Below are positions 1,955 to 45,560 of a DNA stretch of 63,633 bases, piece after piece. The stretch's first letter is position 1. The number at the start of each line of letters is the position of its first letter. Source of the DNA: Planctomycetota bacterium (GTDB lineage: Bacteria > Planctomycetota > MHYJ01 > JACQXL01); the NCBI GenBank assembly GCA_040753835.1, contig JBFMDM010000001.1, forward strand, positions 1 to 63,633, written 5' to 3'. The position numbers and the translations under genes were made by a program. The notes beneath the pieces were generated by a model, which worked only from the letters and a program-made list of their open reading frames with translations, was not told the origin of the DNA and did no database searches.

Positions 1955-2245
1955 CCCCGCACATAACTTGCATATGTATTATGTTTATCTAATACAGAGC
2001 AGAAAAACCGGGAAGTTTTATATCGGGTTTACACCTGATTTAAGAGACCGGCTTAATAAACATAATACAGGAAAAGTCACGGCTACCAAGGTCTATATAC
2101 CGTATGAATTGATTTATTATGAGGCGTATAAATCAAAAAGAGATGCCTTGACGCGCGAGCATAATCTCAAATATTTTGGACAAGGATTCAGCAGATTAAA
2201 GGAAAGAATTAAATACTGTATCCATAATGCAAGTTATGTGCGGGG
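1955..2245. mobile_element. GIY-YIG gene unit bracketed by 19-bp perfect terminal inverted repeats of the CACATAA-MITE family
   Basis: ccccgcacataacttgcat (1955-1973) is the exact reverse complement of atgcaagttatgtgcgggg (2227-2245). Another left terminus starts at 2249. Confidence 0.6.
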
Positions 2246-2270
2246 TAACCCCGCACATAAAGATTGTTGA
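1974..2270 (+). CDS. Small GIY-YIG nuclease-family protein (URI domain only)
   Basis: MYYVYLIQSRKTGKFYIGFTPDLRDRLNKHN...YEAYKSKRDALTREHNLK carries the GIY/YIG, R, and E..N motifs. The internal ATG at 1974 is in frame with track ORF 1911-2270. Confidence 0.85.
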   Translation: MYYVYLIQSRKTGKFYIGFTPDLRDRLNKHNTGKVTATKVYIPYELIYYEAYKSKRDALTREHNLKYFGQGFSRLKERIKYCIHNASYVRGNPAHKDC

Positions 2271-2347
2271 CGCAAATCAGGGGACGCGATACGAATTTAG
2301 AGCGTCTAACATAATGCCGCCCCGAAGGGCGAGCCTCGCCACAGGCG

Positions 2348-2435
2348 GGAAACCACAGATTACTCCCGACATTCGTCGGGATAACTCGCAGTAACTTACT
2401 TCGTGCGAACTGCGAGTAAACAGATTTCGCAGATT
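2348..2435. repeat. Left arm of a perfect 88-bp inverted repeat
   Basis: Compared base by base, its reverse complement equals 3885-3972. The arm contains two internal hairpins (CCCGAC-attc-GTCGGG and ACTCGCAG...CTGCGAGT). Confidence 0.95.
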
Positions 2436-2491
2436 TTAATCCGTGTAATCTGCGCAATCTGTGGTTGCATTTTTCAGCGTCTATCTGCGGC

Positions 2492-3628
2492 TCATTTCCT
2501 GCCTCTTGGCTTCGCAGGTCTTGGCCTCGGAGCTGCCGGTTTTGTATTAGGCGCTGATGTCTTGGGCGTACGCCTGAAAAAATTGTCGTTCCAGTTGTGG
2601 CTCTTATCCCAGGCATCCTCCCTGCGGTCGCGGACATCCTCGCGTCTGTCGCGTCTGTCTTCTTTTCTGTCCCGGACGTCCTCGCGCTTATCACGGCGGT
2701 CTTCGGCCTTGTCACGCGCGCCGCCGTCGTGTTTGGCGTCCCTGGCGTCCTCTTTCTTATCGCGGATGTCTTCCTTCCGGTCACGGCGGTTTTCCCGCCT
2801 GTCACGGACATCTTCCCTTTTATCGCGCCTGTCCTCGGCCTTATCTGGATTAACCGGCGGATTCTTGGCGTCAACCTTATCCTCTGCCTTGTCACGCCTG
2901 TCTTCGCGTCTGTCGCGCACGTCCTCGGCATTATCTCTGCGGTCTTCACGCCTGTCCCTGACGTCCTCGGCCTTGTCGCGCGCCCCGCCGTCGTGCTGGG
3001 CATCCCGGACATCCTCGGCCTTGTCTTTTGCATCCTCAATGCGGTCGCGCACGTCCTCGGCTTTATCGCGTCGGTCCTCGCGCCTGTCCCGGACGTCCTC
3101 GGCCTTATCGCGGTTAATCCGGCGTCTGGCCCAAATATCGTCAGCCGCATCCGAGACGTCGGTCCACTCTCCGTTCTTCTTCTGTTCATCATCCCAGCGG
3201 TTGAGCAGTTCCTCGCGCTTAGCCGAAATATTCGCCTTTTCCGCATCGTCAAGTTGCCCGTCTCCGTTGGCGTCTCCGTGTTTGAGGATGAACTGTTTCT
3301 GGCGTGTTCTAAGATTGAATATCTTCTGGGTAATCTCCTCGTATTTCTCCGGGTCTTCGGCGCGCAGTTTAGCCAACCGTTCCTTCATGGTCTGTCTGAA
3401 TTTATCCGGGTCTTTATCGCGCAGGGCCAGCGCCTCGTCCTTTTCCTTCTGGAGTGCGTCATCGCCCCGACCACTGTTGCCATCGCCCACCTGGCCTGCC
3501 TGCCCCGCTGGGGCGGTAGGCAGGTCGGTCTTGTTGCTCTGGCTGTCATCCTGATTATCGGTTGCATACACGCCTGACCCAAATCCCATCAATCCCATCA
3601 GGACTATCATTAATACTGTCTTTCTCAT
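2492..3628 (-). CDS. Secreted, extremely charged D/R/E/K tandem-repeat protein with an EF-hand-like DxNxDG loop
   Basis: SD GAAAGGAG upstream and signal peptide MRKTVLMIVLMGLMGFGSGVYA. It has a DANGDGQLDD loop and many DKAEDVRDRREDRRD-type repeats. Confidence 0.7.
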   Translation of the reverse strand: MRKTVLMIVLMGLMGFGSGVYATDNQDDSQSNKTDLPTAPAGQAGQVGDGNSGRGDDALQKEKDEALALRDKDPDKFRQTMKERLAKLRAEDPEKYEEITQKIFNLRTRQKQFILKHGDANGDGQLDDAEKANISAKREELLNRWDDEQKKNGEWTDVSDAADDIWARRRINRDKAEDVRDRREDRRDKAEDVRDRIEDAKDKAEDVRDAQHDGGARDKAEDVRDRREDRRDNAEDVRDRREDRRDKAEDKVDAKNPPVNPDKAEDRRDKREDVRDRRENRRDRKEDIRDKKEDARDAKHDGGARDKAEDRRDKREDVRDRKEDRRDRREDVRDRREDAWDKSHNWNDNFFRRTPKTSAPNTKPAAPRPRPAKPRGRK

Positions 3629-3884
3629 AACAATTCTCCTTTCATCAAGTTCGTAATATCAAACACCCTTCCCCGTAAATAGTTTCGCTGTAATTAAAAG
3701 CGGATAGTCGGATGTTGATTTAACACCCCGCCCCTGTCTGATTGGAGCGGGGGACTATACTGGGCTGTATAATCACCGAGAAATCAACAGCCCAGTGTAA
3801 AAATCTGCTTTCAGCCAGTCACCAGAGGCGACCCGCCTTTGGCGGGAATCTGCTATATCCGCTAAATCCGCTTACTTAATTTTC

Positions 3885-3972
3885 AATCTGCGAAATCTGT
3901 TTACTCGCAGTTCGCACGAAGTAAGTTACTGCGAGTTATCCCGACGAATGTCGGGAGTAATCTGTGGTTTCC
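3885..3972. repeat. Right arm of the perfect 88-bp inverted repeat
   Basis: Exact reverse complement of 2348-2435. Confidence 0.95.
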
Positions 3973-4056
3973 CGTCCGTGGCGCCGCTTCTGGCGAGCCC
4001 CGCCCTTCGGGGCGTGAGTCCGCCCTTTGGGGTTCCTCCCACTGGAACCCGGTGGG

Positions 4057-5151
4057 TCACTTTGATTTTTCCACTTCGTGCTTGGTGAAGGAAACATTGA
4101 CCGGATTGGGCTCGTTGCGCCGCGCCAGCGTCTTGCCTTCGCTGTCCAGTTTGGTTATCTGGAGGTTTGAGACGGCCATTACCTTGTCAACCGGGTGCGC
4201 ATAGGTGAAGGCCACCCTGGTTCGCTCCTTGAAATCAAACGAGGATGGCGGAAGGGGTTTGCTTGAATCGTCTTCAGAGGGCGCATCCTTCTCCGGCCAC
4301 TTGACCTTGTAGGTGGTAACGTCCATCTGGCCGATATTCCACATCTTGTTGTATTTGACCGGCATAACAGTTCCGGCGACCTTTTCCTTTGCCCCGAGGA
4401 TTTCCAGCCGGGTTATCTGGAAATCAACGTTCAGCCAGAGGGTGATGGAGTCGGGCAAACTGTCGCGCCCGCCGACGTCCTTGTCTTCCTCTCTGGCGCC
4501 CCGCCCTTTCCGATTAGAGCGGGGACGTTTGGGTTTTTCCGAGTCCTTAAGGAACAATTCTATCTTCTGCAGTTTGCCTTCGGCAGAGGATTTAATCTCG
4601 TAGCGTTCGGTTTTCTGCAGGACGGTTATCTGCCTGATTATTTCCTGCACCATATTGGTGATTTTGGAAAACTCCTGGAGTTGCGCGGCCATTGCCTTGG
4701 CATAGAGTTCGGCCTCGGCCTTGGCCTCCCAGCCGAAATAGGGCGGGATGTCCCGGGGTTTCACGGTGATGGGCTTGTCCTCTTCCCAAATCATTTCGTA
4801 GTCCACCTTTTCCAGGATATAGCGGGAGCGGTACTGCTGGACCTTGAATATCTCGGGCGCCTGGACAAAGCAGGCAATCCGGGTAACCTTGGCCTTTTGC
4901 TGGGTGTAAAAAGAGTCGGCGCATTTCTGCAACTGCTCCAGGGCAATCTCGGCAGGAGTGGGCTGTCCTTCGCCACTCCGTAGCTTCGGAACAGCGGAGG
5001 GTGGCGGCGCTCCGCCCTCGTCCACTGGAGTGGGAGCGCCCTCGCCATAAACAACGGAGCGGGGCGGCTTTTCCCGGTCATCCTGGGCGCAGAGGCATTC
5101 GGCAACCAAAACGAGGCCGGTCAGAATTAAGACCGGTATGGTGCGATACAT
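4057..5151 (-). CDS. Secreted hypothetical protein
   Basis: A long ORF, with the likely start at the internal ATG (MYRTIPVLILTGLVLVAECLCA signal peptide). It contains an in-frame hairpin module at 4499-4524. Confidence 0.6.
   Translation of the reverse strand: MYRTIPVLILTGLVLVAECLCAQDDREKPPRSVVYGEGAPTPVDEGGAPPPSAVPKLRSGEGQPTPAEIALEQLQKCADSFYTQQKAKVTRIACFVQAPEIFKVQQYRSRYILEKVDYEMIWEEDKPITVKPRDIPPYFGWEAKAEAELYAKAMAAQLQEFSKITNMVQEIIRQITVLQKTERYEIKSSAEGKLQKIELFLKDSEKPKRPRSNRKGRGAREEDKDVGGRDSLPDSITLWLNVDFQITRLEILGAKEKVAGTVMPVKYNKMWNIGQMDVTTYKVKWPEKDAPSEDDSSKPLPPSSFDFKERTRVAFTYAHPVDKVMAVSNLQITKLDSEGKTLARRNEPNPVNVSFTKHEVEKSK
4499..4524. repeat. GC-rich hairpin module inside a CDS (CCCCGC...GATTAGAGCGGGG type)
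   Basis: 6-bp stem CCCCGC/GCGGGG. Similar units are intergenic at ~3720-3755 and ~45195-45230. Here it is read in frame as RPRSNRKGRGA. Confidence 0.6.
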
Positions 5152-5285
5152 AAATAGAACTCTATCAAATAATCTCATTAAGTCAAAGAAAATATAACCA
5201 CAGATTAACGCAGATTGTATAGACAAAACTACGGGGTAAATATATGGAATAGTTTTGTCGGGAATGATATAATAAAGGCATCCTT

Positions 5286-6311
5286 ATGAATTATTATCCC
5301 AAATTTCATACAACGAGTTATTATAAAATACCCATAATTATTCTTTTTCTGGCTGCAGCCGCCATAATCCTGCCGTCTGAGGACCAGAATCCGGAGAACA
5401 CGCCGGCAGAAGAATCATCCCAGCCTGCCCGACCGAATGACACCGGTCGTTCGGGCGGGTCGTCCCTGTTGGAGAAGAAACGCCCCGAAGATAAGATTTT
5501 CGTGGGCCAGTGGGCCAGATACCAGATCAGACGTTACAAAAAGGACGCAGCCGATGATACGATTAATGCGCTTTCAGAGGCGGATATTAAAATCAGTATT
5601 ATCGGCAAGGAAACCGTGATAGAGAACGAATACCTTTGGGCGGAATTTGTCATCAATGAGGGCAGGGCGGAACAGCGGATTGTGCGGCTGATGGCGGACA
5701 GGGAGGGCAAACCCGCGCCCGAGCGGCTGGTCCTGAAATACGGAAAACTGCCGGCCGTGGAGATACATCTCAGAATCTGGGAGGTCAAGACCAGAATCAC
5801 CCGCGAGATGCTCTTTGACGAAATGACCTCGGAACTCAACATCATCCCGTTTACCCGGATATTAACGCCCGAGGTCTTTGACGAGAGTTCGGTTACCTAC
5901 GAGACCCTGCCCATCAAGATAGGCCCGAAGGAGACCTCGCTCGGTTGCACCCGCGTGTTGTTAAAGCAGGAGGGGGCGCAACCCGCCCGACCGGACGGTC
6001 GTTCGGGCGGGGAGCCGGCGCTTTTGGCGCCGTCCGCCACAACCGGATATATCTGGTATTCGGACAAGGTGCCGCTGGCCGGGCTGGTGAAACTGCTAGT
6101 GACCGAAGACCGGTACCGGACGATGATACTTCTTACGGATTACGGCCGGGGCGGAGCCAGGTCGCTTATCAGGGAAACGCCGGCCAAACTGGATTTTAGG
6201 GAGAAAGCAGCAGCGCATCCCGTGAGGGAAGGAAATACAGCCGCAGATGACCCCTACGGGAATAACTCGCTGATAACGACCACGGGTCTAACAGCGAGTA
6301 AACACAGATGA
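5286..6311 (+). CDS. Hypothetical protein with N-terminal membrane anchor/signal
   Basis: A 341-aa ORF with hydrophobic N-terminus IPIIILFLAAAAIIL. It has two in-frame palindromes (5424-5459, 5982-6012), each encoding PARP(N/D)..GRSGG. Confidence 0.6.
   Translation: MNYYPKFHTTSYYKIPIIILFLAAAAIILPSEDQNPENTPAEESSQPARPNDTGRSGGSSLLEKKRPEDKIFVGQWARYQIRRYKKDAADDTINALSEADIKISIIGKETVIENEYLWAEFVINEGRAEQRIVRLMADREGKPAPERLVLKYGKLPAVEIHLRIWEVKTRITREMLFDEMTSELNIIPFTRILTPEVFDESSVTYETLPIKIGPKETSLGCTRVLLKQEGAQPARPDGRSGGEPALLAPSATTGYIWYSDKVPLAGLVKLLVTEDRYRTMILLTDYGRGGARSLIRETPAKLDFREKAAAHPVREGNTAADDPYGNNSLITTTGLTASKHR
5424..5459. repeat. In-frame GC-rich palindrome (CCTGCCCGA...TCGGGCGGG)
   Basis: 9-bp arms, translated as QPARPNDTGRSGGS. 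Confidence 0.7.
5982..6012. repeat. In-frame GC-rich palindrome (CCCGCCCGA...TCGGGCGGG)
   Basis: Same arms as 5424-5459, 13413-13442 and 20872-20907, translated as QPARPDGRSGGE. Confidence 0.7.
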
Positions 6312-6399: not shown

Positions 6400-9300
6400 A
6401 TGAGATATAAATTCAGCATATTATTTATTCTTTTCTTCATCTGGCTCGCCCCGCTGTTTTTGTATCCCGAAGACAATCCTGAGGATGAGGATAAAATAAC
6501 CCCGGCGCCGGCTGAAGTGATATTTGACGAAGACCTGCCGGCTGATTTGGGAAAACTTATTGAGGTGGTCTATCGCTGGAAAGAGCCGCAGTCCAGCGTG
6601 GACGAGATTGTCTACAAGCGGCTGATTAAGGTCCAGGGCGCGCGGCTGGGCTGTTATTACTATGCAATGTACGCCCGGTGCAAGGATAATATCCTGGTTG
6701 GCAAAACAGCCGCGCCCGACCCGACAGGGTCCCTGCGGGATACGTGGACGCCTGAGCGGGTCCTGATGGGCGGAGAGGATATTTCCCTTGCCGTTTATAA
6801 AGGCGTGATAGAAACCCTCGCCTCGCCAGGCGCCCGCTCCGCCGAGGCGGAGACGAGGCGAGAAGCCGGCGGGGGCAAGAGCGCGGAGTATCGCATTATT
6901 TATTACCAGCAGACCCCGTATGGCCTGTTGCGTCTGGGCGAAATCAGACGCCACACGGATGAGTTTGTGCCCGATATGCGTTTTGTCAAGTGCATTGCCT
7001 CCGAAGTGGGCAAGGACACGCCGCCGACCTTGTGGCATATCGGCGCCCTGGTGTCCGGCTCGCTGGCGCTGTTTGATTATTTCAATCCCAAGGAGGAAGC
7101 GAAGAATCACGCGCCGGTTGCGGATTTCCGGACCATACCGGCCACCGGCACCATCAATACCGTTTTCTATTTTGACGCCGGCGTCTCAACCGACGCGGAC
7201 AGCCCAATAGGCGACCTGCTGGTGCGCTGGAATCTGAACGGCGACAGCGACTGGGATAATGTATTCACATTTGATAAGATAACCAGCACCTCATTCGGCG
7301 CGCCCGGGACATACAATATCGTGGCGCAGGTGCGCGACAAGGAGGGCGCATTTTCTACTATTACCAAGACGGTAACCGCCATTGCAGTCGGCCCAGGTCC
7401 CGGCTCCACGCCCCATCCGATGTTCCGCAACACCGTCACTCATACGGGAGTATCGCCTTACAACGGACCGGTGGTAACCACCACCAAATGGACCGTAACG
7501 ACCGGCGAAAGGATAGAGGCCGCTCCTTCTATCGCCTCTGACGGGACCGTCTATGTCGGCTCTTATGACGGCGCGCTGTATGCCATTCTGCCCGCAACCG
7601 GAGTCGTGTCCTGGACCAGCCCTTTGGCCGGTCCGGTTCATTCGTCTGCGGCCATAGCCACAGACGGCACGGTTTATGTGGCCGCAGATACGCGGTTGTA
7701 TGCGCTTAATCCGGCCAACGGTAATCCCTACTGGTCATACAGCACCGGCGGATTGGTGCGCTCCTCTCCGGTGATTGACTCGGACGGCACGGTTTATATC
7801 GGCTCGCTGGATAATAATCTCTATGCAGTCAATCCGGACGGCAGTTTCAAGTGGTCGTATGCCACAGGCGGGCAGATATGGTCCTCGCCCGCCATCGGGC
7901 CGGACGGCACGATTTACGTGGGCTCGCTGGATAACGGCATTTATGCGATAAACCAGAACAGCACGTTCAAATGGAAATATACGACCGGCGGCGGGATTTA
8001 TTCCTCGCCGGCCGTGGATAATTCTAACGTGGTTTATGCCGGGAGTTTGGACGGCTCGTTCTATGCGCTCAATCCGGACGGGACGCTGAAGTGGAGCATT
8101 CCGGCCGGCGGGCAGGTGTGGTCTTCAGCGGCTTTAAGCGGAACGGCGGTCTATTTCGGTTCGGATAGCGGCACCTTGTATTGCCGTAACGTTTCAAACG
8201 GCACGCCCCAATGGTCTTACCCGGCCGGCAACAGGATTCGCTCCTCGCCGACCGTGGATGCCTCGGGCCGGATTTATTTCGGAGCGGATGACGGTAAACT
8301 TTATGGCCTGGATTCGTCCGGAGCGGATTTATCTAATTGGCCGATTGACCTGTCCGGCGCCATCACACCCATCCGCTCGTCCGTGGCGATTGCCAATGCC
8401 GTGACGCCGACCCTGTATGTCGGCTCGTATGACAAGAAGATATACGCCATCGGTGCGGCCGCGCTTGACCCGGCTGACCTGGTTATCCAAAAGACAGCCA
8501 ATAAACAGCAGGTAACAATCGGCGAGGTGGTGACATATAAAATTGTAATCACCAACCAGGGTCCGGACCCGACCAATGGAACGCCGACAGCAATTATTGA
8601 CGCCATTCCGGCCGGGTTCAAGTATCTCAAGGGCTCAACCCGCCTGTCCGGCGCAGTTCAGCCGGACCCAAGCGGAAGCGATATCCTTACTTTTGACGTC
8701 GGGCATTTTACGCCCGGCTCTTCCAAGGCGTTGACCTACCAACTGGTAGTGGGAAGCGGGGTGCGCGAAGGCCGCTATGTCAACCGCGTGTATGCCGTTT
8801 ATTATTACGACCAGCCGCCGCTCACCGAGGGCAGGAGCGGTATCGCCAGGAGCGAGGTTTGGGTCGTGCCTGACCCGCTCTTTGACCTAGGCACGATTAT
8901 CGGCAAGGTATTCTGGGATAAGAACGCCAATGGAGTGCAGGATAAAGGCGAAGGCGGATACGGCGTAGCGCAGATAATAATGGAAGACGGGACGATAATT
9001 ACCGCGGACAGGAACGGCGGTTATCATATCCCGGGCGTGAAGCCGGGCACGCACCTGTTGCATCTCATGGATATTTCCGCGCACTGGATAACCACGGATA
9101 ACCCCTGCCTGGTGCGGGTTACGCCGGGCCTTCTGGTTAAGACGAATTTCGGGATTCATCCGGTGGATAAACCGCTGGATTCGTTTGTGCCGCCCCTTAA
9201 AGATATGACTTTTGTCTTATTGGGCGAGGGTGAAGTGAGCAGTATTTACGCCAACGGCAGCAATGCGGACAAGCAGGATAAGAGCGTCAGGGACGGCAAT

Positions 9301-11928
9301 TACCTGAACGGGCGGCTGGCCTATTATCTTTCAGGCCGGATAGAGGATAAGTTCACGGTTGTTTCGTCGCTTGATACCCGGCGCGCGCAGTCCCAGTCCA
9401 CGGGATTTCGGTACCTTGACCCGGATAAGTATTATACCGAATACGGCGATAATTCTTCGGTATCGTATGATGCCGCAAATGCGGCCGGCCCATTTTACCT
9501 GAGGATTGACTCGCTGCCCGGGGCGAACCTCGGGAAATCCAGTTTGTTATATGGTTCATATCAATCGGGGATTGACAAGACAGAACTGACGACGTATCAA
9601 AGGACGCTTTCAGGAGTGAAAATAGACGCCGCGCAGGTGCCGGTCTATGAAGACGAGCGCCTGAAGATAAAGGCGTCCGGCACGGTATTTGCCGCCCAGC
9701 CGGTTGATGCAGCGCAGGCGCCGGCCCATAACGAGTTCCGGGCCACCGGCGCTTCGGTGTATTACCTCAAAAACAGGGATATCCTGCAGGGCTCGGAGCG
9801 TATTGCCGTAGAAACGCGCGACAGGGTCACCAACCTTGCGTTTTCCACCAGGCAACTGCTCCGCGACAGCGATTACGAAATAGATTATTCCAACGGACGC
9901 ATTATCTTCAGAGCGCCGCCTTCAATGGTTGATACTTCGGCATATATTACCTCCAATAATATTCTCGGCGGCAATCCGGTTTACGTTGTGGTTGATTATG
10001 AATACGCGCCGGCCGGAGCGCGAGGGATTAATGACGGCCCTTACGGCGGCCGGCTCTCGGGCGAGTTGTCGGACGAGCGGGATAATAAAATCCAGTTGGG
10101 CGGGACATATATCGCGGAAAAGGACGACAGTGACTACGAACTAAAAGGTCTTGATTTCACCCTGAACGAGCCGGCGACGTTTATTATTCCGATGAGATTA
10201 TCCTTGGCTGCCGAATACGCCGAGTCAACATCCCGGGGCATAGACGGATATATCTCCTCAAACGGCGGGTTGGGTTTTAATGCCATCACCGGCACCAATT
10301 CCAGCGACGGGGTCGCGTATAAAATCAAGGGCGGGATAAAAACGTCCGAACAGTTTGGGATTGATTCGTATTACCAAAAGGTGGAGCCCGGATTTATTTC
10401 GGCTTCGTCATACAACAACCAGGGTTCGTTGCGCTACGGCTATCTAATATCTATCAAAGGTGATACTGCTTCGCGGTGTGGCGGCTACGACCCTCCCACG
10501 ATTGCTATAAATCTCCGTTATGATAACCAGGAGTTATTGAGGAACTCCAATATTATTTCGCAGGGCAATATCGGCGCGGAGCGCACCGAGACCGGCGCTC
10601 TGCAGGTAATTTACCGCAGCGATAAATGGACCATTACCAACGAATACCGTTATCAAGAGGCGACCAACCTGATTGGCGGTGTTAAGGCCGAGACCAACGA
10701 GGACCTGGCGCTCGGCGCGCTCAAGGTTGATTATGCGGTTACGCCGAGGAGCAATGTCTATGCAATCCAGCAGGCGGCCCTGAAGGGCGATGCCAATTCG
10801 CAGACCACCCTGGGTGCGACGTTCGGCCTGTGGGAAAAGACCGCGGTCGTGCTCCAGGCCACCTCCGGTACAAATGGTAATGCATTCCTGATAGGCGTGA
10901 ATAACAGGGTGTCAGACAAGACCGAGACGTTTTCCAATGTCAGCATCAGCGATGATAATTCATTGGACACGTTACAGGTCTCCAACGGTGCCTCGTACCA
11001 GTTGACGCCAACAACGCGCCTTAATGCACAGCAGGATTATTCAACCAGGAAGAACCAGTCAACAGATGCCACCCAACGTTCAACCGCCGCTTCGGTGGGT
11101 CAGGAAACCAAACTTTCAGACCGGTGGCGGTTCTGGGCGACCGCCCAGCAGGGTATTGTCAATGAATATAACGGCGCAACTAATATAGAAACCGTCAGGG
11201 AATCCGGCTGGCTCCGGTTCAGGTATGCGGATAATGACAATACCGTGTTTGACACCAAGATTGAAGCCAGGTTTGACGAGGGCGACGTGGACAAGCGCCA
11301 GTACCTAACCGCCAACAGTTTCAGGCATAAGATAACCGAGGACATTACGGTTTCTTTGCGGGATAATTATTCCCGGACCGAGAATCGGACTACCGATACG
11401 AACGAGGCGCTTTTTAACGAAGCCGGTTTGGGCCTGGCCCTGCGGCCGGTCAAATGGGACCGGTGGCACCTGTTGGCTAAATACACCTATCTTAAGAATA
11501 TCTATCCGTCCGCCCAGACCGACGCCACGGTGGGCACAACAAGGACGTTATCTAATATTTATGCCATAGAAACCGCCTATGACATCTCTAAATATCTGCA
11601 ACTGGTGAAGAAATACGCCCTGAAGGATATGAAAGAAACCGTGGCCGGCTATGACGAGACCGAGAATGAGGTTACGCTCTGGATTAACCGCATCAACTAC
11701 AACGTCATCAAGCAGTGGTATGCCGGCGTGGAATACCGCATCCTCAGGCAGACATTAGGCGAGGACAAAAAGAGCGGATTCCTGGTTGAGGTGACGCACC
11801 GGGCCTCGGAGAATATCCATTTAGGCGTGGGTTATAACTTCACTGATTTTTCTGACGACCTCAGGCAAAACAACAGTTATTCCAGCAACGGATTCTTTGT
11901 CAGGATTAATACGGCGTTCGGGTTTTAA
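6400..11928 (+). CDS. Giant (1842 aa) surface protein: PKD-like domain, ~9 PQQ/beta-propeller repeats, DUF11-type repeat, SdrD/Cna-B-like domain, large C-terminal OM beta-barrel
   Basis: N-terminal hydrophobic signal. Repeats of the form DGT(V/I)Y(V/I)GS.D..LYA(L/I)NP..G..KW. The motifs TIGEVVTYKIVITNQGPD and GKVFWDKNANGVQDKGE are present. The C-terminus ...GFFVRINTAFGF ends in Phe, as in OMPs. Confidence 0.85.
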   Translation: MRYKFSILFILFFIWLAPLFLYPEDNPEDEDKITPAPAEVIFDEDLPADLGKLIEVVYRWKEPQSSVDEIVYKRLIKVQGARLGCYYYAMYARCKDNILVGKTAAPDPTGSLRDTWTPERVLMGGEDISLAVYKGVIETLASPGARSAEAETRREAGGGKSAEYRIIYYQQTPYGLLRLGEIRRHTDEFVPDMRFVKCIASEVGKDTPPTLWHIGALVSGSLALFDYFNPKEEAKNHAPVADFRTIPATGTINTVFYFDAGVSTDADSPIGDLLVRWNLNGDSDWDNVFTFDKITSTSFGAPGTYNIVAQVRDKEGAFSTITKTVTAIAVGPGPGSTPHPMFRNTVTHTGVSPYNGPVVTTTKWTVTTGERIEAAPSIASDGTVYVGSYDGALYAILPATGVVSWTSPLAGPVHSSAAIATDGTVYVAADTRLYALNPANGNPYWSYSTGGLVRSSPVIDSDGTVYIGSLDNNLYAVNPDGSFKWSYATGGQIWSSPAIGPDGTIYVGSLDNGIYAINQNSTFKWKYTTGGGIYSSPAVDNSNVVYAGSLDGSFYALNPDGTLKWSIPAGGQVWSSAALSGTAVYFGSDSGTLYCRNVSNGTPQWSYPAGNRIRSSPTVDASGRIYFGADDGKLYGLDSSGADLSNWPIDLSGAITPIRSSVAIANAVTPTLYVGSYDKKIYAIGAAALDPADLVIQKTANKQQVTIGEVVTYKIVITNQGPDPTNGTPTAIIDAIPAGFKYLKGSTRLSGAVQPDPSGSDILTFDVGHFTPGSSKALTYQLVVGSGVREGRYVNRVYAVYYYDQPPLTEGRSGIARSEVWVVPDPLFDLGTIIGKVFWDKNANGVQDKGEGGYGVAQIIMEDGTIITADRNGGYHIPGVKPGTHLLHLMDISAHWITTDNPCLVRVTPGLLVKTNFGIHPVDKPLDSFVPPLKDMTFVLLGEGEVSSIYANGSNADKQDKSVRDGNYLNGRLAYYLSGRIEDKFTVVSSLDTRRAQSQSTGFRYLDPDKYYTEYGDNSSVSYDAANAAGPFYLRIDSLPGANLGKSSLLYGSYQSGIDKTELTTYQRTLSGVKIDAAQVPVYEDERLKIKASGTVFAAQPVDAAQAPAHNEFRATGASVYYLKNRDILQGSERIAVETRDRVTNLAFSTRQLLRDSDYEIDYSNGRIIFRAPPSMVDTSAYITSNNILGGNPVYVVVDYEYAPAGARGINDGPYGGRLSGELSDERDNKIQLGGTYIAEKDDSDYELKGLDFTLNEPATFIIPMRLSLAAEYAESTSRGIDGYISSNGGLGFNAITGTNSSDGVAYKIKGGIKTSEQFGIDSYYQKVEPGFISASSYNNQGSLRYGYLISIKGDTASRCGGYDPPTIAINLRYDNQELLRNSNIISQGNIGAERTETGALQVIYRSDKWTITNEYRYQEATNLIGGVKAETNEDLALGALKVDYAVTPRSNVYAIQQAALKGDANSQTTLGATFGLWEKTAVVLQATSGTNGNAFLIGVNNRVSDKTETFSNVSISDDNSLDTLQVSNGASYQLTPTTRLNAQQDYSTRKNQSTDATQRSTAASVGQETKLSDRWRFWATAQQGIVNEYNGATNIETVRESGWLRFRYADNDNTVFDTKIEARFDEGDVDKRQYLTANSFRHKITEDITVSLRDNYSRTENRTTDTNEALFNEAGLGLALRPVKWDRWHLLAKYTYLKNIYPSAQTDATVGTTRTLSNIYAIETAYDISKYLQLVKKYALKDMKETVAGYDETENEVTLWINRINYNVIKQWYAGVEYRILRQTLGEDKKSGFLVEVTHRASENIHLGVGYNFTDFSDDLRQNNSYSSNGFFVRINTAFGF

Positions 11929-12023
11929 CCCCGCACATAAGATTTATTAAGCGTTTATAACGGCTGATAAATACTTGATTCAAACCATCTGCATAATTGG
12001 TTATACAAATATTATGTGCGGGG
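11929..12023. mobile_element. 95-bp CACATAA-MITE copy
   Basis: Termini are ccccgcacataa (11929-11940) and ttatgtgcgggg (12012-12023). The interior is nearly identical to 21483-21577. Confidence 0.85.
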
Positions 12024-12111
12024 TTTTCCTGTTATTATATTTGACCTTTATTGATATTTGTTTATACCTATAACAACAGGCAGATAAACAACTTTAACGA
12101 AAGGAGTTTTT

Positions 12112-12998: not shown

Positions 12999-14219
12999 TT
13001 ATTGCGCTGTGGAATAGGCGTCCAGCGCCAGTTGTTTGGGCGAATATCTCCGCCATTGGGCCGAGGCGCGGTATTTGGCATAGGCCATTGCTCCGACCAT
13101 CACCGCATTATCCGTGCAGTGTCTTCCGGCCGGCAGGAAGAGTTTGATATTATTTTCTTTTGCTGCCGCCTGGAATCTTTCCCTCAAACGGCCGTTGCAG
13201 GCCACGCCGCCGCCCAGGACAATCGCACTGCATTTTTTAATCTTTGCGGCCTGGAACGTCTTTTGAACCAGTGTATCCACAACTGCTTCCTGGAACGAGG
13301 CGCAGATATCAGGGATATTCAGCCCTTTCTTGAGCGGGGTCCTGGCCGAAGCGTTCTGGCCCTTGCAATGATACAGCGCCGCGGTCTTCAGGCCGCTGAA
13401 ACTAAAGCCCAGCCCGCCCGTACGACCGTACGGTCGGGCGGGCGAACCCTCTGACGCAATGCCTCTGGGGAATTTAATCGCGCTGGGGTTGCCCTTGCGG
13501 GCAATTTGTTCTATTATCGGCCCGCCCGGATAACCCAATCCTAATATTTTGGCTACCTTATCAAACGACTCTCCAGCCGCATCATCGCGCGTTCTGCCGA
13601 CGGTGCGATAATCTGCGGGCGATTTCACATAGAACAAACTGGTATGCCCACCCGAAACTACAAGACCTATATACGGATAAATTAGTTCTTCGGTCAAATT
13701 GTTCACATAAAGATGCGCCTCAATATGGTTGATTGGTATCAACGGCTTATCCAGGAGCCAGGCCAGGGTCTTGGCAACCGAGACGCCCACAAGCAGCGCG
13801 CCAATCAATCCGGGCCGGTTGGTTACAGCCACAGCCGAGATGTCTTTTAACTCAAGATGCGCTCCGCTCCACTCAACTGGGGCGAGAGCGTCCCGCTTCA
13901 GCGGATGAGTGCGGGGCGCGTCTTTCAGCGCCTTTATTAATATTGGCAGTATGGATTCAATATGCGCCCGGCAGGCAATCTCAGGCACCACGCCGCCGTA
14001 TACGCTGTGCAGGTCAATCTGGGACAGGACCACATTCGCCAGGATTTCTTTACCGTTGCGGATAATACTTACTGCCGTCTCGTCGCACGAGGTCTCAATG
14101 CCCAGGCAGACAAACCCAGCCCCTGCGCGCGAAGCCGCAGCAAAGTTCCGATTATTTCGGGGCAGGGGCTGGGCAAAAGGTTTGGTTTTATTCGCGCGAT
14201 TGGTTTTGATTCGCACCAT
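12999..14219 (-). CDS. tsaD: tRNA N6-adenosine threonylcarbamoyltransferase TsaD (start uncertain; ~40-aa N-terminal extension in the ORF)
   Basis: Motifs LGIETSCDETAVS, GGVVPEIACRAH, VSGGHT and FSFSGLKT. It carries an in-frame palindrome at 13413-13442. Confidence 0.9.
   Translation of the reverse strand: MVRIKTNRANKTKPFAQPLPRNNRNFAAASRAGAGFVCLGIETSCDETAVSIIRNGKEILANVVLSQIDLHSVYGGVVPEIACRAHIESILPILIKALKDAPRTHPLKRDALAPVEWSGAHLELKDISAVAVTNRPGLIGALLVGVSVAKTLAWLLDKPLIPINHIEAHLYVNNLTEELIYPYIGLVVSGGHTSLFYVKSPADYRTVGRTRDDAAGESFDKVAKILGLGYPGGPIIEQIARKGNPSAIKFPRGIASEGSPARPYGRTGGLGFSFSGLKTAALYHCKGQNASARTPLKKGLNIPDICASFQEAVVDTLVQKTFQAAKIKKCSAIVLGGGVACNGRLRERFQAAAKENNIKLFLPAGRHCTDNAVMVGAMAYAKYRASAQWRRYSPKQLALDAYSTAQ
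13413..13442. repeat. In-frame GC-rich palindrome inside tsaD
   Basis: cccgcccgtacgaccgtacggtcgggcggg is read on the minus strand as SPARPYGRTGG, just before the conserved FSFSGLKT. Confidence 0.8.
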
Positions 14220-19965: not shown

Positions 19966-21369
19966 TTAGACATTCTTTAATAAGATTGTCAGGTTATCTA
20001 TTTCTTCTTTCGTGTTCATCTCCGTCACGCACAGGAGCATCGCATTCTTTAGTTTGGGATAGAATCTCTTAAGCGCCAGGCCGCCGATGATGCCGGCTTT
20101 CAGGAGTTTCTTGTTTATCTGTTCAGGATTCTTGGGGCATTCTATTACGAACTCGTTGAAGAATGGCCCGTTAAATGCGAGTTTGAATCCCGGGATTTTG
20201 GATATTTGGTCGGCCGCATAATGCGCCTTTTGAAGGCACAAGGTGGCCACTTGCTTTATGCCCTCTTTGCCCACGGCCGCCAGGTATATGGCGGTCCGGA
20301 TGGCGCAGAGCGCCTGGTTGGAGCAGATATTGGAGGTGGCCTTTTCCCGGCGGATGTGCTGTTCGCGCGTGGACAGGGTCAGGACAAACCCGCGTCTGCC
20401 CTTGTTGTCCACGGTCTCGCCCACAATCCGGCCGGGCATCTTGCGGATATGCGCCATTTTGGCGGCCATAAACCCGAGATGCGGGCCGCCGAAGGACATC
20501 CGGTTACCCAATGATTGTGCATCGCCCACAACTATATCCGCTCCGTATCCGCCTGACCCATCCAGTCGGGCAGGTTCTCCGGGCGGTTTCAGCAGTCCCA
20601 GGGAAATCGGATTGACCACGTTGATGAGCATAACACCTTCGTATTTGCGCACGAGTTTGGCGATTTGGTCAACCGGCTCTACGATGCCGAAGAAATTCGG
20701 GGATTGGTAAGCCACGCAGGCAACGTTTCCGTCCAGTTTCTTTTCCAGCGCCTCCAATGAGGTCGCGCCATCAGCGAAATCTATTTCTATGATTTTGATA
20801 TTTAAATCCTCAAGCCAAGTCCGGACCACAGCCCGGTATTCCGGATGGATGGACTTGGAGAGGATGACCTTCCCGCCCGAACGACCGGCGTCGTCCGGTC
20901 GGGCGGGTTTCTTGTCGGTGGTATGAAGCGCCATCAGGACGGCCTCGGCCAGGGCCGTGGCGCCGTCGTAAAGCGAGGCGTTGGAGACCTCCATGCCGGT
21001 CAATTCGCACATCATTGTCTGGTATTCAAAGATGGTGGTCAGCGCGCCCTGGCTGGTCTCGGGCTGGTACGGGGTGTAGGCGGTATAGAATTCGCTCCGG
21101 GCGGCCAGGTGGTCCACCACGGCCGGCACGAAGTGGTTGTAACATCCCGCGCCCAGGAAAGACGTTGTTTTGGCGGCATCGGTGTTTTGTGCGGCCAATT
21201 CCGAGAGGAGTTTGGTCGCCTCCGGCTCGCTTAAGGCCTTGGGCAGATTAAGCGGCTGATTGAGGCGCAGTTGCGTCGGGATGCTCTTAAAAAGTTCGTC
21301 AATATTGGCGGCTCCGCTGGCTTTGAGCATCTCGCGGATGTCGGACTCTGTATGAGGGATATATGGCAT
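19966..21369 (-). CDS. gcvPA: Glycine dehydrogenase (decarboxylating) subunit 1, with two in-frame palindrome insertions
   Basis: MPYIPHTESDIREML..., FLGAGCYNH, YTPYQPE.SQG and TREQHIRREKATSNICSNQAL. Confidence 0.9.
   Translation of the reverse strand: MPYIPHTESDIREMLKASGAANIDELFKSIPTQLRLNQPLNLPKALSEPEATKLLSELAAQNTDAAKTTSFLGAGCYNHFVPAVVDHLAARSEFYTAYTPYQPETSQGALTTIFEYQTMMCELTGMEVSNASLYDGATALAEAVLMALHTTDKKPARPDDAGRSGGKVILSKSIHPEYRAVVRTWLEDLNIKIIEIDFADGATSLEALEKKLDGNVACVAYQSPNFFGIVEPVDQIAKLVRKYEGVMLINVVNPISLGLLKPPGEPARLDGSGGYGADIVVGDAQSLGNRMSFGGPHLGFMAAKMAHIRKMPGRIVGETVDNKGRRGFVLTLSTREQHIRREKATSNICSNQALCAIRTAIYLAAVGKEGIKQVATLCLQKAHYAADQISKIPGFKLAFNGPFFNEFVIECPKNPEQINKKLLKAGIIGGLALKRFYPKLKNAMLLCVTEMNTKEEIDNLTILLKNV
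20872..20907. repeat. In-frame GC-rich palindrome inside gcvPA
   Basis: cccgcccgaacgaccggcgtcgtccggtcgggcggg is read as KPARPDDAGRSGG. A degenerate second copy lies at ~20551-20575 (EPARLDGSGG). Confidence 0.8.
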
Positions 21370-21387
21370 AGCAATTGGGTTCTTAAC

Positions 21388-21686
21388 CCGCATTATTCAT
21401 AAATTTTTATACAATTATGTTGAAAGCCATTCCATAGTTGTTATATGGTGCGGGTAATCCAGCACATAACCTCTACTGCTTGCCCCGCACATAAGGTTTA
21501 TTAAGCATTTATGATGGCTAATAAATAACTTCCTCAAATCATCTGCATAATTGGTCATACAAATATTATGTGCGGGGTGAAGGCTACCCAAGTTGAAGGT
21601 TATGTGCTGGGCTACTTTATTGTATAGGCACAAACATCTAATACACTTTGTTACCATTTTTAGCATTGTATGAATAATCCAGATTA
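21388..21686. repeat. ~300-bp composite repeat (termini GCATTATTCATA.../...TATGAATAATCCAGATTA) between gcvPA and gcvH, with nested elements
   Basis: It shares its ends with 45075-45293 and 46002-46209. It contains the hairpin element 21459-21610 (CCAGCACATAAC.../...GTTATGTGCTGG), which is itself split by the 95-bp MITE at 21483-21577. Confidence 0.8.
21483..21577. mobile_element. 95-bp CACATAA-MITE copy nested in another repeat
   Basis: Termini are ccccgcacataa and ttatgtgcgggg. The interior matches 11929-12023 with few substitutions. Confidence 0.85.
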
Positions 21687-22076: not shown

Positions 22077-22320
22077 CTTGCTTTCTATAAAACAAACTTC
22101 TGCTACAAAGGCGCTAAGGCACGAAAACCACGAAGTGACCGCGTCCAGCGAACTCTGCCCGCCCGAAGGCGAGGTCTCGCCAAAGGCGGACAGAGATCCC
22201 AGCCGGGAACGGGGCGGGCGCTATAGCGAATTTCTTGGTGTCTTCGTGTCTTGGCGGCTAAATTATAATACGTTAATAAAAAGGGCAAATAAATTCGGAT
22301 AAAATTATGAAAAGGGTTGA

Positions 22321-23675: not shown

Positions 23676-25532
23676 ATGGAAAACATCATATTCTGCGGCG
23701 GATGCGGGACTTTTATCTCGGCGGCTGATATTTCAGCCGGCAAGGCATCCAAGATAAACAATATCTATTATTGCCAAAAATGTTCCACTGGCGCCCAGGC
23801 CCGGCCGGCCCAAGCCAGACCGCCGGCCCCTGCCGCAAGGCCGGCCCAGCCAGCCACGGCGCGGCCGGCTGCAATGCCGCCATTAGAGCGAGCCTCGCCT
23901 TCGGGCAGGCCGCCTCAGCAGAGACCGGCGCCCAAGCCGACTGTGCCTGTTGCACGACCCGTAGCGCCTGGCACACCGGCGGCAATGCCAGTTTCTCCGG
24001 TCCAAGCGCAAAGACCAGCGGCGCCAAGACCGGTTGCGCCCGCAAGGCAATTGGATGAGACGGTCGCCATCAACCAGCCCGCTCGGCCGTCCGCTCCGCC
24101 TTCCCGCTCTGGTGGGGTAGCGCGGCCCGCTGTGCCGCAGCAGAAAACCCAGAAGGTAATGCCTTCTACGCCGCCCAGGGTATCCCAGACCTCGCGTATC
24201 AGACAGCCCCCCGCCCCTGCGGGCGAGGCTCGCCCTTTAGGGCGGCAAGTTACCGCGGATACAGGCGGCGATGATATTGAGATTTTGGACGACGCCTCAT
24301 CCCGCAGGTTCGGCAAGGCAAAGACAGGCAAGGGCGGAAATAAGAAAATCTACCTGATTGCCGGAGCGGCCGCGGTTGTAATCATAGGCATTATTATCTG
24401 GTCGGTGTTGAGCGGTATGGCAACGGCGGCCAGGGAAAAAGAGGAGGCCGCGCGCCAGGCAAAACTCAAAAAGCAGTTTAACGCCATAGAAGAGGTTGAA
24501 AAGGACTTTGCGGACGACCCGCAGAAAATTATTGACAAGATAAAGGAACTGTCCGGCGAACTAAAAGGCACCAAATACGAGGATGAGATAAAGAAAAAGG
24601 AGGAAAACGCAAAGGCCCTGATAGAAATACTGGATAAGATAAATGAACTGGAAAAGCCGGTGGAAACAGCCGAGGAGGTTGACCAAAGGATAAAGGACAT
24701 TAGCAAACTTAAGAGCAATCCGGCCGCGGCAACCAGCAAGACGGCCGACAATAAACTCAGGGAATTGCTCAATGACTTCAGGAAAAAGCAGAAAAAGTTA
24801 GCCGAAGAGGAAAAGAAGGCGCACGAGGCGCAGGAGGCCGCGGAGAAAAAGGCCTACGAGGATTTCAAGGCAAAGATAGAACTCCTGAGAAACAGGCGGG
24901 ACTGGAAGGAGATGCTCAGGGAATGCGACATCCTTCTCGGGCGTCCCAACGGCCTGCAATACCAGGAGGAGGCGGATAAAATCAAGGAGGAGGCCAAGGC
25001 GGCGCTGGAAGAAGACCAGGAAAAGGCCAGGAAGCGCAAGGAATGGCAGGTCCTTAACGACGATATATCAAAATGGGACAGGTCCGGAGATTCCAAGGCG
25101 GAGATTTACGTGGACGAGGACAAGATACTCCTGAAGAACACGGCTTCGGCCGGCAACCGGGGCGCCGTTGCCAGCATTGCCAATAACAACGAGGGCGAGG
25201 GCTGGCAGGATTTTACGATGACCCTGGAATTCAAGGTGGTGAAGGGTTCTTTTGAAATGTTCCTGCGGGGCGGATTCCAGTCCTTTAATGTTCCGGGGCT
25301 TGGAAACTTTAGCGTCTTCAGCGGCATTCCCATTCCCTTCCCGAGGAAATTCAAGGACGAGTGGCAGAAATACACCATAGAACTGAAGGGCAAGAAACTG
25401 ACCATCAGCGGGACCGGCCTGAACGAACCCAAGGTGAGCGATGTCCCCGAGGGAAAGGGCGGAATCGGCATCAACGTAAAGGGCGGCGATGAAATAATCG
25501 TGAAAGAACTGAAAGTGAAGGTGATAGAATAA
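23676..25532 (+). CDS. Zinc-ribbon / Pro-Ala-rich / single-TM / coiled-coil protein with C-terminal DUF1080-like (LamG jelly-roll) domain
   Basis: CGGCG...CQKC ribbon, a long P/A-rich tract, TM IYLIAGAAAVVIIGIIIWSVL, a K/E-rich coiled coil, and C-terminal WQDFTMTLEFKV...KELKVKVIE. Confidence 0.7.
   Translation: MENIIFCGGCGTFISAADISAGKASKINNIYYCQKCSTGAQARPAQARPPAPAARPAQPATARPAAMPPLERASPSGRPPQQRPAPKPTVPVARPVAPGTPAAMPVSPVQAQRPAAPRPVAPARQLDETVAINQPARPSAPPSRSGGVARPAVPQQKTQKVMPSTPPRVSQTSRIRQPPAPAGEARPLGRQVTADTGGDDIEILDDASSRRFGKAKTGKGGNKKIYLIAGAAAVVIIGIIIWSVLSGMATAAREKEEAARQAKLKKQFNAIEEVEKDFADDPQKIIDKIKELSGELKGTKYEDEIKKKEENAKALIEILDKINELEKPVETAEEVDQRIKDISKLKSNPAAATSKTADNKLRELLNDFRKKQKKLAEEEKKAHEAQEAAEKKAYEDFKAKIELLRNRRDWKEMLRECDILLGRPNGLQYQEEADKIKEEAKAALEEDQEKARKRKEWQVLNDDISKWDRSGDSKAEIYVDEDKILLKNTASAGNRGAVASIANNNEGEGWQDFTMTLEFKVVKGSFEMFLRGGFQSFNVPGLGNFSVFSGIPIPFPRKFKDEWQKYTIELKGKKLTISGTGLNEPKVSDVPEGKGGIGINVKGGDEIIVKELKVKVIE
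24211..24245. repeat. In-frame string of three mini-hairpins (GCCC..GGGC, GCGAG.CTCGC, CGCCC..GGGCG)
   Basis: ccgcccctgcgggcgaggctcgccctttagggcgg is read as PAPAGEARPLGR. The same modules are intergenic at ~2318-2349, 22150-22190 and 61845-61900. Confidence 0.65.
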
Positions 25533-45293: not shown

Positions 45294-45409
45294 GTATTAC
45301 AGAACTCCGGCAAACGCAAGATTTATCCCGATTTAATATTTCTACGTTGCAGATTCCGGCAAAACCGCTATTTTACACGGAAACCAGGATTATAAAAATC
45401 CCCCTTGAT

Positions 45410-45505: not shown

Positions 45506-45560
45506 CTTGACAAAACCGGATATCTATGCTATAATAACGGAATCAAAGGAGTAGCAATAG

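Follow-up and report, generated by a model that had tools for sequence, protein, structure and literature searches.

The stretch of DNA analysed here, called the window throughout, covers 63,633 nt of contig JBFMDM010000001.1 from the Planctomycetota bacterium assembly GCA_040753835.1. Its tsaD gene carries a 30-nt GC-rich palindrome, which an earlier note, made from the sequence alone, had read as an in-frame insertion directly before the conserved FSFSGLKT block. We use the name E for the element family to which this palindrome belongs. E has the form CCCGCCCG-AACG-inner stem-loop-inner stem-CGGGCGGG and folds into a bulged hairpin of 30 or 36 nt, in which an outer stem of 8 bp (CCCGCCCG/CGGGCGGG) is followed by the 4-nt bulge AACG, an inner stem that covaries and a short loop. 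The E copies, E-like units and host genes of the window are listed below, where ORF stands for open reading frame.

12999-14219, minus strand: tsaD, host gene, 406 aa, Pfam PF00814 (E-value 1e-86)
13413-13442, minus strand: E copy of 30 nt in tsaD, sequence CCCGCCCGTACGACCGTACGGTCGGGCGGG, read PARPYGRTGG
19966-21393, minus strand: gcvPA, host gene, Pfam PF02347 (GDC-P; E-value 7e-128)
20872-20907, minus strand: E copy of 36 nt in gcvPA, read PARPDDAGRSGG
20548-20574, minus strand: decayed E-like hairpin of 27 nt in gcvPA, read PARLDGSGG, not in relatives
5424-5459, plus strand: E copy of 36 nt in ORF 5286-6311, one arm CCTGCCCG, read PARPNDTGRSGG
5982-6011, plus strand: E copy of 30 nt in ORF 5286-6311, read PARPDGRSGG
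55139-55168, no strand given: E-like hairpin CCTGCCCG..CAGGCGGG, 35 nt upstream of tRNA-Arg(ccg) at 55203-55275

The palindrome in tsaD is an insertion and not an ancestral loop. It lies where it had been described, in a gene that Pfam identifies as TsaD, and is read in the context S-PARPYGRTGG-LGFSFSGLKT. We compared the protein with its relatives in a 27-sequence alignment. None of the 26 aligned relatives has the 10-residue insert, including Planctomycetota proteins that are 75-81% identical, and at this site the relatives read GIASEGS----------LDFSFSGLKT. T. maritima TsaD (PDB 6N9A) is also without the insert. The shorter loop that the earlier note ascribed to other TsaD proteins is therefore found in all 26 relatives and in 6N9A, and homologous residues in distant orthologues, which would have spoken for an ancestral loop, were not seen. 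The empty site is preserved at the DNA level in the syntenic relative L001, which has GAA GGG TCG|TTG GAT compared to GAG GGT TCG[30 nt]CTG GGC in the window; the difference is exactly 30 nt. No target-site duplication is visible at the tsaD copy (TCG|E|CTG vs the empty TCG|TTG in L001). The AlphaFold model of the window protein has good confidence as a whole (predicted template modelling score, pTM, 0.80), and the predicted local distance difference test (pLDDT) falls below 50 only at residues 1-32, 101-116 and 257-266. These three segments are the three window-specific inserts, and residues 257-266 correspond to E.

The second conserved host gene gives a similar picture. The window gcvPA protein reads KK[PARPDDAGRSGG]KV, the insert is missing in 18 of the 19 aligned relatives, and again no target-site duplication was found (AAGAAA|E|AAGGTC). 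ORF 5286-6311 has no Pfam match. Its first copy sits in a poorly conserved N-terminal region, and at its second copy (5982-6011) the window protein has ∼10 extra residues relative to the syntenic orthologues in L001 and L004. Elements with the same arms had been claimed in gcvPA and twice in this ORF, in frame and read as PARP..GR.GG; all are present at those sites, only the end of the last one had to be corrected from 6012 to 6011.

All four copies fit CCCGCCCG-(A/T)ACG-ACCG-loop-CGGT-CGGGCGGG, with a loop of 2 nt for the copies of 30 nt and 8 nt for those of 36 nt. This consensus is asymmetric, and since the four copies are oriented alike with respect to their host genes, each is read as PARP..GR.GG. 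Taken by itself, the 8-mer arm is ∼2-fold enriched in the window (11 matches vs 5.9 expected). For pairs of arms 6-33 nt apart with at most one mismatch per arm we counted 13, where 100 first-order (dinucleotide-frequency) Markov simulations gave an expectation of 1.3 and a maximum of 5. For the recurrence of a pattern with 28 specified bases within 63.6 kb the chance expectation is negligible. Folded as single strands, the window copies form bulged hairpins of -10.7 to -16 kcal/mol with z-scores from -2.7 to -5.7. Two further observations concern E-like units in the window. A second inverted repeat (55110-55143) precedes tRNA-Arg(ccg), and no GIY-YIG gene adjoins that tRNA. A degenerate unit, CCAGCCCGCCAGCCGGTCGGGCGAG, lies at 1855-1879 in the C-terminal tail of a Rex-like repressor ORF (1247-1954; Pfam Put_DNA-bind_N and CoA_binding).

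The same element was found far beyond the window. A pattern search with one genome per species gave about 50 genuine loci among the matches listed, and a stricter pattern in the JGI metagenomes gave at least 120 more. The counts of copies and loci reported in the following are counts among the matches listed: 174 copies at 170 loci, the window included, with a GC range of 31-66%. These loci were ascertained on an exact match to E, and the search pattern fixes 28 positions; at the genuine loci, which lie in low- and mid-GC metagenome-assembled genomes (MAGs), the unconstrained positions match the window element too, always as AACG-ACCG..CGGT. The MAGs are labelled as Nomura-, Kaiser-, Zambryski-, Vogel- and Uhrbacteria, Paceibacterota, Saccharibacteria, Peribacteria, Bacteroidota and Planctomycetota, with one 31%-GC 'Gammaproteobacteria' bin. 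E is thus common, almost base for base, to phyla as distant as Patescibacteria, Bacteroidota and Planctomycetota. The earlier note had likened the palindromes to the selfish elements inside Rickettsia ORFs, here in an unrelated lineage and with a shorter element. The in-frame insertions and the shorter length stand, but E is not specific to one lineage. Across the family the outer stem and the AACG bulge are constant, while the inner stems covary (ACCG/CGGT, ACTG/CAGT, TACCG/CGGTA and AGCCG/CGGCT).

Matches in high-GC actinomycetes, obtained with a first, looser pattern, were rejected as chance matches of the form CCCGCCCGCCCG... and served as negative controls. With regard to possible carriers, E had no match in 2.9 million viral contigs and no true match in the plasmid database PLSDB. 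No Rfam family covers E in the window and 18 E-bearing loci, where the only matches were tRNAs and one 16S rRNA. Literature searches, which included the literal DNA and peptide strings, returned no description of E, and no account of cross-phylum near-identity of a 30-nt unit or of patchy presence at identical sites. As a side observation, the copies at L085:761-792 and L106:137-172 are flanked in a similar way (..gc(t/g)a|E|ggcaaga(g/a)acagag). The L085 copy is ∼100 nt downstream of the 16S rRNA 3' end, and both copies may lie in an rRNA spacer or another structured RNA.

We regard it as hardly credible that the inserts are assembly or sequencing artefacts, or that the tsaD insert is an ancestral variable loop which is palindromic by chance. 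The tsaD copy, like the window TsaD protein, is known from one contig only, which would fit an artefact. The same in-frame element, however, was encountered in 170 listed loci from many unrelated projects and assemblers, and this recurrence speaks strongly against an artefact. The gcvPA insertion was moreover recovered from two independent assemblies of related organisms (L221 and L270). An artefact is consequently unlikely at least for the gcvPA copy; the concern that the palindromes might be absent from independent assemblies is answered for gcvPA and still applies to tsaD. An ancestral loop is contradicted by the lack of the insert in every TsaD orthologue examined, Thermotoga included.

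We then looked at how the copies are distributed over genes. Long ORFs were defined as stop-to-stop ORFs, not gene models, with at least 150 codons and at least 20 codons on each side of E, and 104 of the 174 listed copies (60%) lie in such ORFs. The host genes checked with Pfam belong to the core set and include SecA, leucyl-tRNA synthetase (LeuRS), a second class I aminoacyl-tRNA synthetase, GyrA, UvrA, TrmD, CarB and transketolase. Of the listed copies in ORFs, 100 of 104 have a length that is a multiple of three, compared to 25 of 35 in non-coding DNA (Fisher p = 1.6e-4), and none of these 100 introduces a stop codon into the host frame. The in-frame copies measure 30, 33, 36, 39 or 42 nt, whereas variants of 32, 35 and 37 nt are common in the non-coding copies. 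The in-frame gene copies therefore bear the mark of selection for frame-preserving inserts. There is also a clear preference for one reading, as the earlier note had proposed to examine: 67 of the 104 listed ORF copies have a single orientation and phase and read PARP(N/D)..GRSGG. The other 37 are spread over the five remaining combinations of frame and orientation and give unrelated peptides, which indicates that the nucleotide hairpin is conserved and not the peptide.

These statistics suggest that the inserts are translated. We consider it very improbable that they are instead cut out of the transcript or passed over by the ribosome, as in T4 gene 60 or the Magnusiomyces mitochondrial byps. 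A stable hairpin in an ORF is the classic context of translational bypass, and E is also found in tRNA-like sequence. Neither removal nor bypass would need the stop-free spanning frame of 3n length seen in 100 of the 104 listed ORF copies, though, nor would it concentrate the non-3n variants outside ORFs, and the lack of E in any intact tRNA (see below) argues against an excision system at the RNA level.

The insertion sites show a sequence preference. In coding sense the flanks read AAA|E|GA; at the two best positions T occurs in 54 and 53 of the 67 listed copies, where a rough estimate from base composition gives ∼25-30% for the AAA positions. In tRNA fragments the flanks read TTA|E|GAGC. 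The flank logos show TC on the 5' side and TTT on the 3' side, with no target duplication and no extension of the palindrome into the flanks. Taken together, E is inserted in either orientation, without duplication and with a preference for A|GA. The 30-nt E in six diverged LeuRS genes (L082, L098, L157, L197, L207 and L232; flanks 72-78% identical) is the same in sequence and in position and lies within a Cys-x-x-Cys-like motif, HC(D/E)K[PARPDGRSGG]CG.

The gcvPA site allowed us to follow one insertion across genomes. L221 has the identical 36-mer at the same site within flanks that are 80% identical. L270, found by protein homology, shares these arms, and its loop holds a second, nested E-like unit (L270:789-848, read PARPDG-PRPTGRAFGR-GSGG), so hairpin loops are themselves insertion targets. 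In a neighbour-joining tree of gcvPA (441 ungapped columns, computed without support values) the three E-bearing genes do not form a clade, and L221 is placed among sequences that lack E and are 92% identical to it. This points to repeated insertion at one site or to several precise losses of the element, and both would imply an active and exact process.

The element itself is conserved beyond the synonymous sites of its hosts. Between the window and L270, E is identical at all 26 comparable positions, compared to 62.7% identity at the third codon positions of gcvPA. For 17 listed pairs of orthologous sites (LeuRS, TrmD, S41 peptidase and gcvPA) the flanks are 72-80% identical and E is ∼100% identical; at two further listed sites one genome has a 30-mer where the other has a 36-mer. 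Such figures, together with the compensatory inner-stem changes that keep the structure, could mean that E has been domesticated as a nucleic-acid signal under host selection, for example as a protein-binding, nucleoid-structuring, transcription-pausing or mRNA-stability hairpin, with in-frame copies that serve a function and are more than tolerated. We nevertheless judge domestication to be quite unlikely. Close relatives do without the inserts at the same sites, which makes them dispensable, and the host genes are functionally unrelated. The 17 pairs were ascertained on exact matches, and the same conservation would follow if insertion had been recent or had recurred, or if a mobilising enzyme recognised E.

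Many of the non-coding copies have tRNA D-loop sequence on both sides. An intact tRNA with an insert in its D-loop was considered and rejected: after excision of E, ARAGORN restored a tRNA in 0 of 49 and then in 0 of 174 listed copies, so that none of the listed copies interrupts an intact tRNA. The tRNA-like sequence around E is a truncated duplicate of a tRNA next to it. At a typical locus, tRNA positions 1 to ∼30, with E between positions 21 and 22, are followed by an ORF of ∼80 aa and then by the complete tRNA. The stop codon of the ORF is the TAG of tRNA positions 8-10, and the complete tRNA has the 5' sequence of the fragment; it is an Arg, Thr, Val or Ala tRNA, varying by locus. In the variant loci L016, L074, L146, L183 and L223, E is located in the anticodon loop or the T-loop of a 3' fragment downstream of the ORF, and in further variants it is found at tRNA positions 7|8 or 9|10.

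The linked ORF encodes a GIY-YIG catalytic domain alone (77-115 aa), with Pfam PF01541 above the cut-off for four proteins (E-values 1e-11 to 1e-15). Among solved structures the UPF0213 proteins 1YWL and 1ZG2 come nearest; by domain classification, the UPF0213 family is probably a relative of the structure-specific nuclease SLX1. Within 56 nt of E, a GIY-YIG ORF is present at 24 of 169 listed loci (10 of 49 from genomes, 14 of 120 from metagenomes) and at 0 of 74 controls. As those loci had been selected for E, we inverted the test and started from homologues of the nuclease. Six Patescibacteria members were chosen from the homologues listed for one such protein, without regard to E and solely by the length of their contigs, and directly upstream of the gene each of the six shows a tRNA fragment with an E-family hairpin. 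In a seventh homologue, which is distant (51% identical) and labelled Marinimicrobia, a tRNA 3' fragment is duplicated and other hairpins are present, but no E. More distant GIY-YIG genes (L139, L067, L213, L276 and window ORF 1974-2270), those of L139, L067, L213 and the window being of other subfamilies, pair with other palindromes, either at the equivalent junction or as bracketing inverted repeats. E is thus tightly linked to a UPF0213-type GIY-YIG gene at tRNA genes. The E-linked nuclease had no match in 50,697 phage records, and our literature searches found no pairing of GIY-YIG with repetitive extragenic palindromic (REP) sequences and none of GIY-YIG with hairpins at tRNA genes.

Two side observations concern such loci. 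On L245 (JGI Ga0255346_1000080, ∼1170-2110, labelled Magasanikbacteria) at least five tandem tRNA 5' fragments surround one GIY-YIG gene, and the D-loop of each holds the E variant CCTGCCCGACTGAATGACTTCAGTCGTTCGGGCGGG. A related hairpin, CCCGCCAGAATGAC(A/G)(T/C)TGTCGGGCTGG, was seen in two contexts: in frame in a Planctomycete TsaD (L271:2381-2407, K-PARMTLSGW, after AAA) and, on the metagenome contig L229, in the D-loop of a tRNA fragment ∼100 nt upstream of a GIY-YIG match.

The linkage can be read in two ways. E might be a selfish hairpin spread by host functions or another enzyme, tied to the GIY-YIG gene only indirectly; it would prefer the tRNA-loop site TTA|GAGC and survive only in the dispensable fragments that insertion of the nuclease gene leaves behind. 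Several observations fit this. E is never in an intact tRNA, it occurs in both orientations beside the nuclease gene, the tRNA fragments of L026, L031 and L088 carry E with no GIY-YIG between fragment and tRNA, 145 of 169 listed loci have no GIY-YIG nearby, and the window has 4-5 E copies and no GIY-YIG of the E type. To explain the six of six loci chosen without regard to E, however, the fragments would have to be an extremely hot target, and the distant GIY-YIG genes with their other hairpins suggest a general pairing of nuclease and hairpin. On balance we think an indirect link unlikely.

The best explanation of the whole, and in our judgement a probable one, is that E is a family of selfish hairpins in a trans-mobilised system with the GIY-YIG nuclease. 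E would spread as selfish DNA by exact insertion at the DNA level, in either orientation and preferably at A|GA. Copies that land in genes would survive only where the frame is kept, no stop codon arises and a surface loop tolerates the insert, and the survivors would be transcribed and translated, mostly as PARP(N/D)..GRSGG. The GIY-YIG gene would lodge at tRNA genes beside a displaced tRNA fragment that holds E in a loop, and its product, the candidate mobiliser, would act in trans by cutting the targets, the hairpin or cruciform, or both, and so spread E. [quoted passage not shown] Isolated gene copies like that of tsaD would be non-autonomous insertions that landed in tolerant loops.

A number of points weigh against this explanation. 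The argument for translation draws solely on frame and stop-codon statistics. E evolves more slowly than the synonymous sites of its hosts, which could mean a host-level function and not pure selfishness. The 63.6-kb window contains no E-linked GIY-YIG gene, its own GIY-YIG gene being of another subfamily with a different inverted repeat. The orientation of E beside the nuclease gene is variable, so E is no obvious strand-specific part of the transcript of that gene, and an 80-aa catalytic domain has no evident DNA-binding domain that would provide sequence specificity. The linkage could be indirect, with the displaced tRNA fragments acting as permissive hot targets. Finally, every E copy was taken from a metagenome assembly, for which the taxon label is the depositor's.

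A more far-reaching proposal, which we offer tentatively and with some doubt, is that E represents a new class of mobile DNA. It would consist of bulged hairpins of 30-36 nt, moved by a UPF0213-type nuclease of ∼80 aa with footprint-free insertion and excision at A|GA, and exchanged horizontally among Patescibacteria, Planctomycetota and Bacteroidota.

E bears on the general question of how gene-borne palindromes move and why proteins tolerate such inserts. Its small size and strong conservation allow identical copies to be traced across phyla, and it carries a clear statistical signature of selection for frame-preserving inserts in essential genes. The minimal UPF0213 GIY-YIG nuclease is a concrete candidate enzyme whose role in mobilisation can be tested in vitro. 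If the proposed role is true, it would be the first function for a widespread orphan family, and a stereotyped peptide would decorate the core proteins SecA, GyrA, UvrA, LeuRS, TsaD and GcvP. In MAGs of the candidate phyla radiation (CPR, Patescibacteria) and of Planctomycetes, such inserts lead to inflated and distorted gene models and protein alignments, and the presence or absence of E at fixed sites might serve as a fine-scale population marker.

E is not the only hairpin family in the window. The other inserts and repeats are as follows.

14115-14173, minus strand: second palindrome family, CCCAGCCCCTGC...GCAGGGGCTGGG, at the tsaD N-terminus, its centre occupied by a nested insert of 33 nt; pLDDT <50 (residues 1-32)
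13860-13916, minus strand: composite hairpin insert in tsaD, PRTHPLKRDALAPVEWSGA, GC 0.70, fold z = -3.1; pLDDT <50 (residues 101-116)
6817-6879, plus strand: GC-rich double-hairpin insert of the GGCGAG..CTCGCC family in an ORF for an 1842-aa beta-propeller protein, GC 0.79, fold z = -4.3
34990-35130, plus strand: composite hairpin block in a gene for a metallo-beta-lactamase (MBL)-fold hydrolase, ∼44 residues unmatched vs PDB 3ESH
56271-56313, plus strand: hairpin in a gene for an AMP-binding enzyme, in a region that is variable and of similar length in the alignment to 8WEV
1974-2270, plus strand: GIY-YIG nuclease ORF, 98 aa, Pfam PF01541 (E-value 4e-14), of a subfamily other than the E-linked one
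1949-2251, no strand given: 25-nt inverted repeat with core CCCCGCACATAACTTGCAT bracketing the GIY-YIG ORF, arms 1949-1973 and 2227-2251
11927-12026, 21481-21580, 45407-45508 and 46070-46127, no strand given: MITE-like intergenic elements of ∼58-100 nt with CCCCGCACATAA termini

We compared these with orthologues where such were available. The orthologous palindrome of the first tsaD insert is uninterrupted in L271 (26 nt), the second tsaD insert is missing in relatives and in 6N9A, and the insert at 6817-6879 is not in the L001 and L004 orthologues. In-frame hairpin modules had also been claimed at 34990-35130, 56271-56313, 4499-4524 and 24211-24245. The first is borne out by the ∼44 extra residues relative to 3ESH, and Pfam Lactamase_B covers 239 aa of this protein for 170 profile positions. 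For 56271-56313 the alignment to 8WEV gives no clean insertion. The last two lie within ORFs that have no Pfam match or usable orthologue; the neighbouring genes of L001 and L004 are not orthologues of ORF 4057-5226. Overall, comparison with orthologues defined 11 window-specific insertions. Nine of the 11 are GC-rich, with a GC content of 0.64-0.79 compared to 0.55 for genes and fold z-scores from -2.0 to -5.5 relative to gene pieces of the same length. Relatives bear their own, different inserts at other sites, so the whole Planctomycete clade is prone to the phenomenon.

Further repeats were observed in the window. A nested double-hairpin family, with an outer CCGCCC/GGGCGG stem around GGCGAG(N1-3)CTCGCC, occurs in intergenic DNA and in ORFs (2318-2350, 6817-6879, 22158-22195, 24209-24245, 35072-35113 and 61855-61897). 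A 104-nt inverted repeat (2332-2435 / 3885-3988, 96% complementary) surrounds a 1449-nt segment containing ORF 2492-3628 on the minus strand, which has no Pfam match; this unit (2332-3988) looks like a transposon-like or invertible unit. The bracketed GIY-YIG ORF is directly followed by a perfect 13-bp hairpin of the same sequence as the bracket (2234-2260). The four MITE-like elements end in CCCCGCACATAA / TTATGTGCGGGG, as does that bracket, and the first two have internal sequence in common.

The closest likeness among gene-borne palindromes is with the Rickettsia palindromic elements (RPE), which were reportedly described by Ogata et al. in 2000. RPE-1 is ∼100-150 bp long and confined to Rickettsia, and to our knowledge no enzyme partner of RPE is known. 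As with E, these are palindromic repeats in frame in housekeeping ORFs, with a tolerated peptide, and further copies are found in non-coding DNA and close to RNA genes. E differs in its length of 30-36 nt, in being nearly unchanged across phyla and in its link to GIY-YIG; the distinction was drawn from the description of RPE. The very small dispersed repeats (SDR) of cyanobacteria, attributed to Elhai et al. in 2008, are said to be a further example, and we know of no associated enzyme. They resemble E as mobile-looking, nestable hairpins of tens of nt that also occur in genes, but belong to another lineage and have other sequences, again judged by description. In the byps the frame is broken and the ribosome skips the insert; E, by contrast, preserves the frame in 100 of the 104 listed ORF copies, which are 3n and stop-free.

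RPE are not the sole precedent, as small intragenic REPs have been documented in several phyla, and the phenomenon is of a known kind. Intragenic REPs of the GTAG and CGTC superfamilies were described by Di Nocera et al. in 2013 in several phyla including Planctomycetes; they are GC-rich palindromes of 20-40 bp, some of which lie wholly in ORFs such as uvrA, aminoacyl-tRNA synthetase and repair genes, and RPE-4 and RPE-6 have been equated with CGTC REPs (PMC3733652). E resembles them as an imperfect GC-rich palindrome of 20-40 nt with many copies and a structure kept by covariation. GTAG/CGTC REPs have an unpaired tag, are mostly extragenic and often form dimers, whereas the flank logos of E show no GTAG or CGTC tag, 60% of the listed copies are located in long ORFs, and almost every copy stands alone (174 copies at 170 loci). 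Mobile GC clusters and double-hairpin elements are known from fungal mitochondria, and coding palindromes from Nematomorpha mitochondria (PMC4478555, PMC6649704). They too are small GC-rich hairpins that invade genes of AT-richer genomes, but are organellar, and no nuclease partner at tRNA genes has been described for them.

With regard to the enzyme, the REP/REPIN systems combine dispersed hairpins with a single-gene Y1 HUH transposase (RAYT) flanked by its cognate hairpins (PMC3116915, PMC3337134). The short dispersed hairpins, the single-gene enzyme and the covariation recur in E, but the gene beside E is a GIY-YIG nuclease and not a tyrosine HUH transposase, and REPIN-RAYT are described as vertically inherited within lineages while E is near-identical across phyla. 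The target-site duplication of MITEs was not found at the tsaD or gcvPA copy. The candidate enzyme gene of E lies beside the hairpin and not inside it, and the window GIY-YIG ORF is bracketed by the CCCCGCACATAA termini of the MITE-like copies. The closest enzyme analogue is T4 SegB, a free-standing GIY-YIG homing endonuclease in a tRNA gene cluster (PMC2330249), which shares with the E-linked gene the type of nuclease, the position among tRNA genes and a selfish lifestyle. SegB is larger, has DNA-binding domains, is phage-borne and has no dispersed hairpins, whereas the E-linked protein is a chromosomal UPF0213-type domain of ∼80 aa without a match in the phage records. The catalytic domain of a GIY-YIG homing endonuclease is present in the E-linked proteins and a separate DNA-binding domain was not found in them; the patchy presence of E at an identical gcvPA site is the sole hint towards homing-type behaviour.

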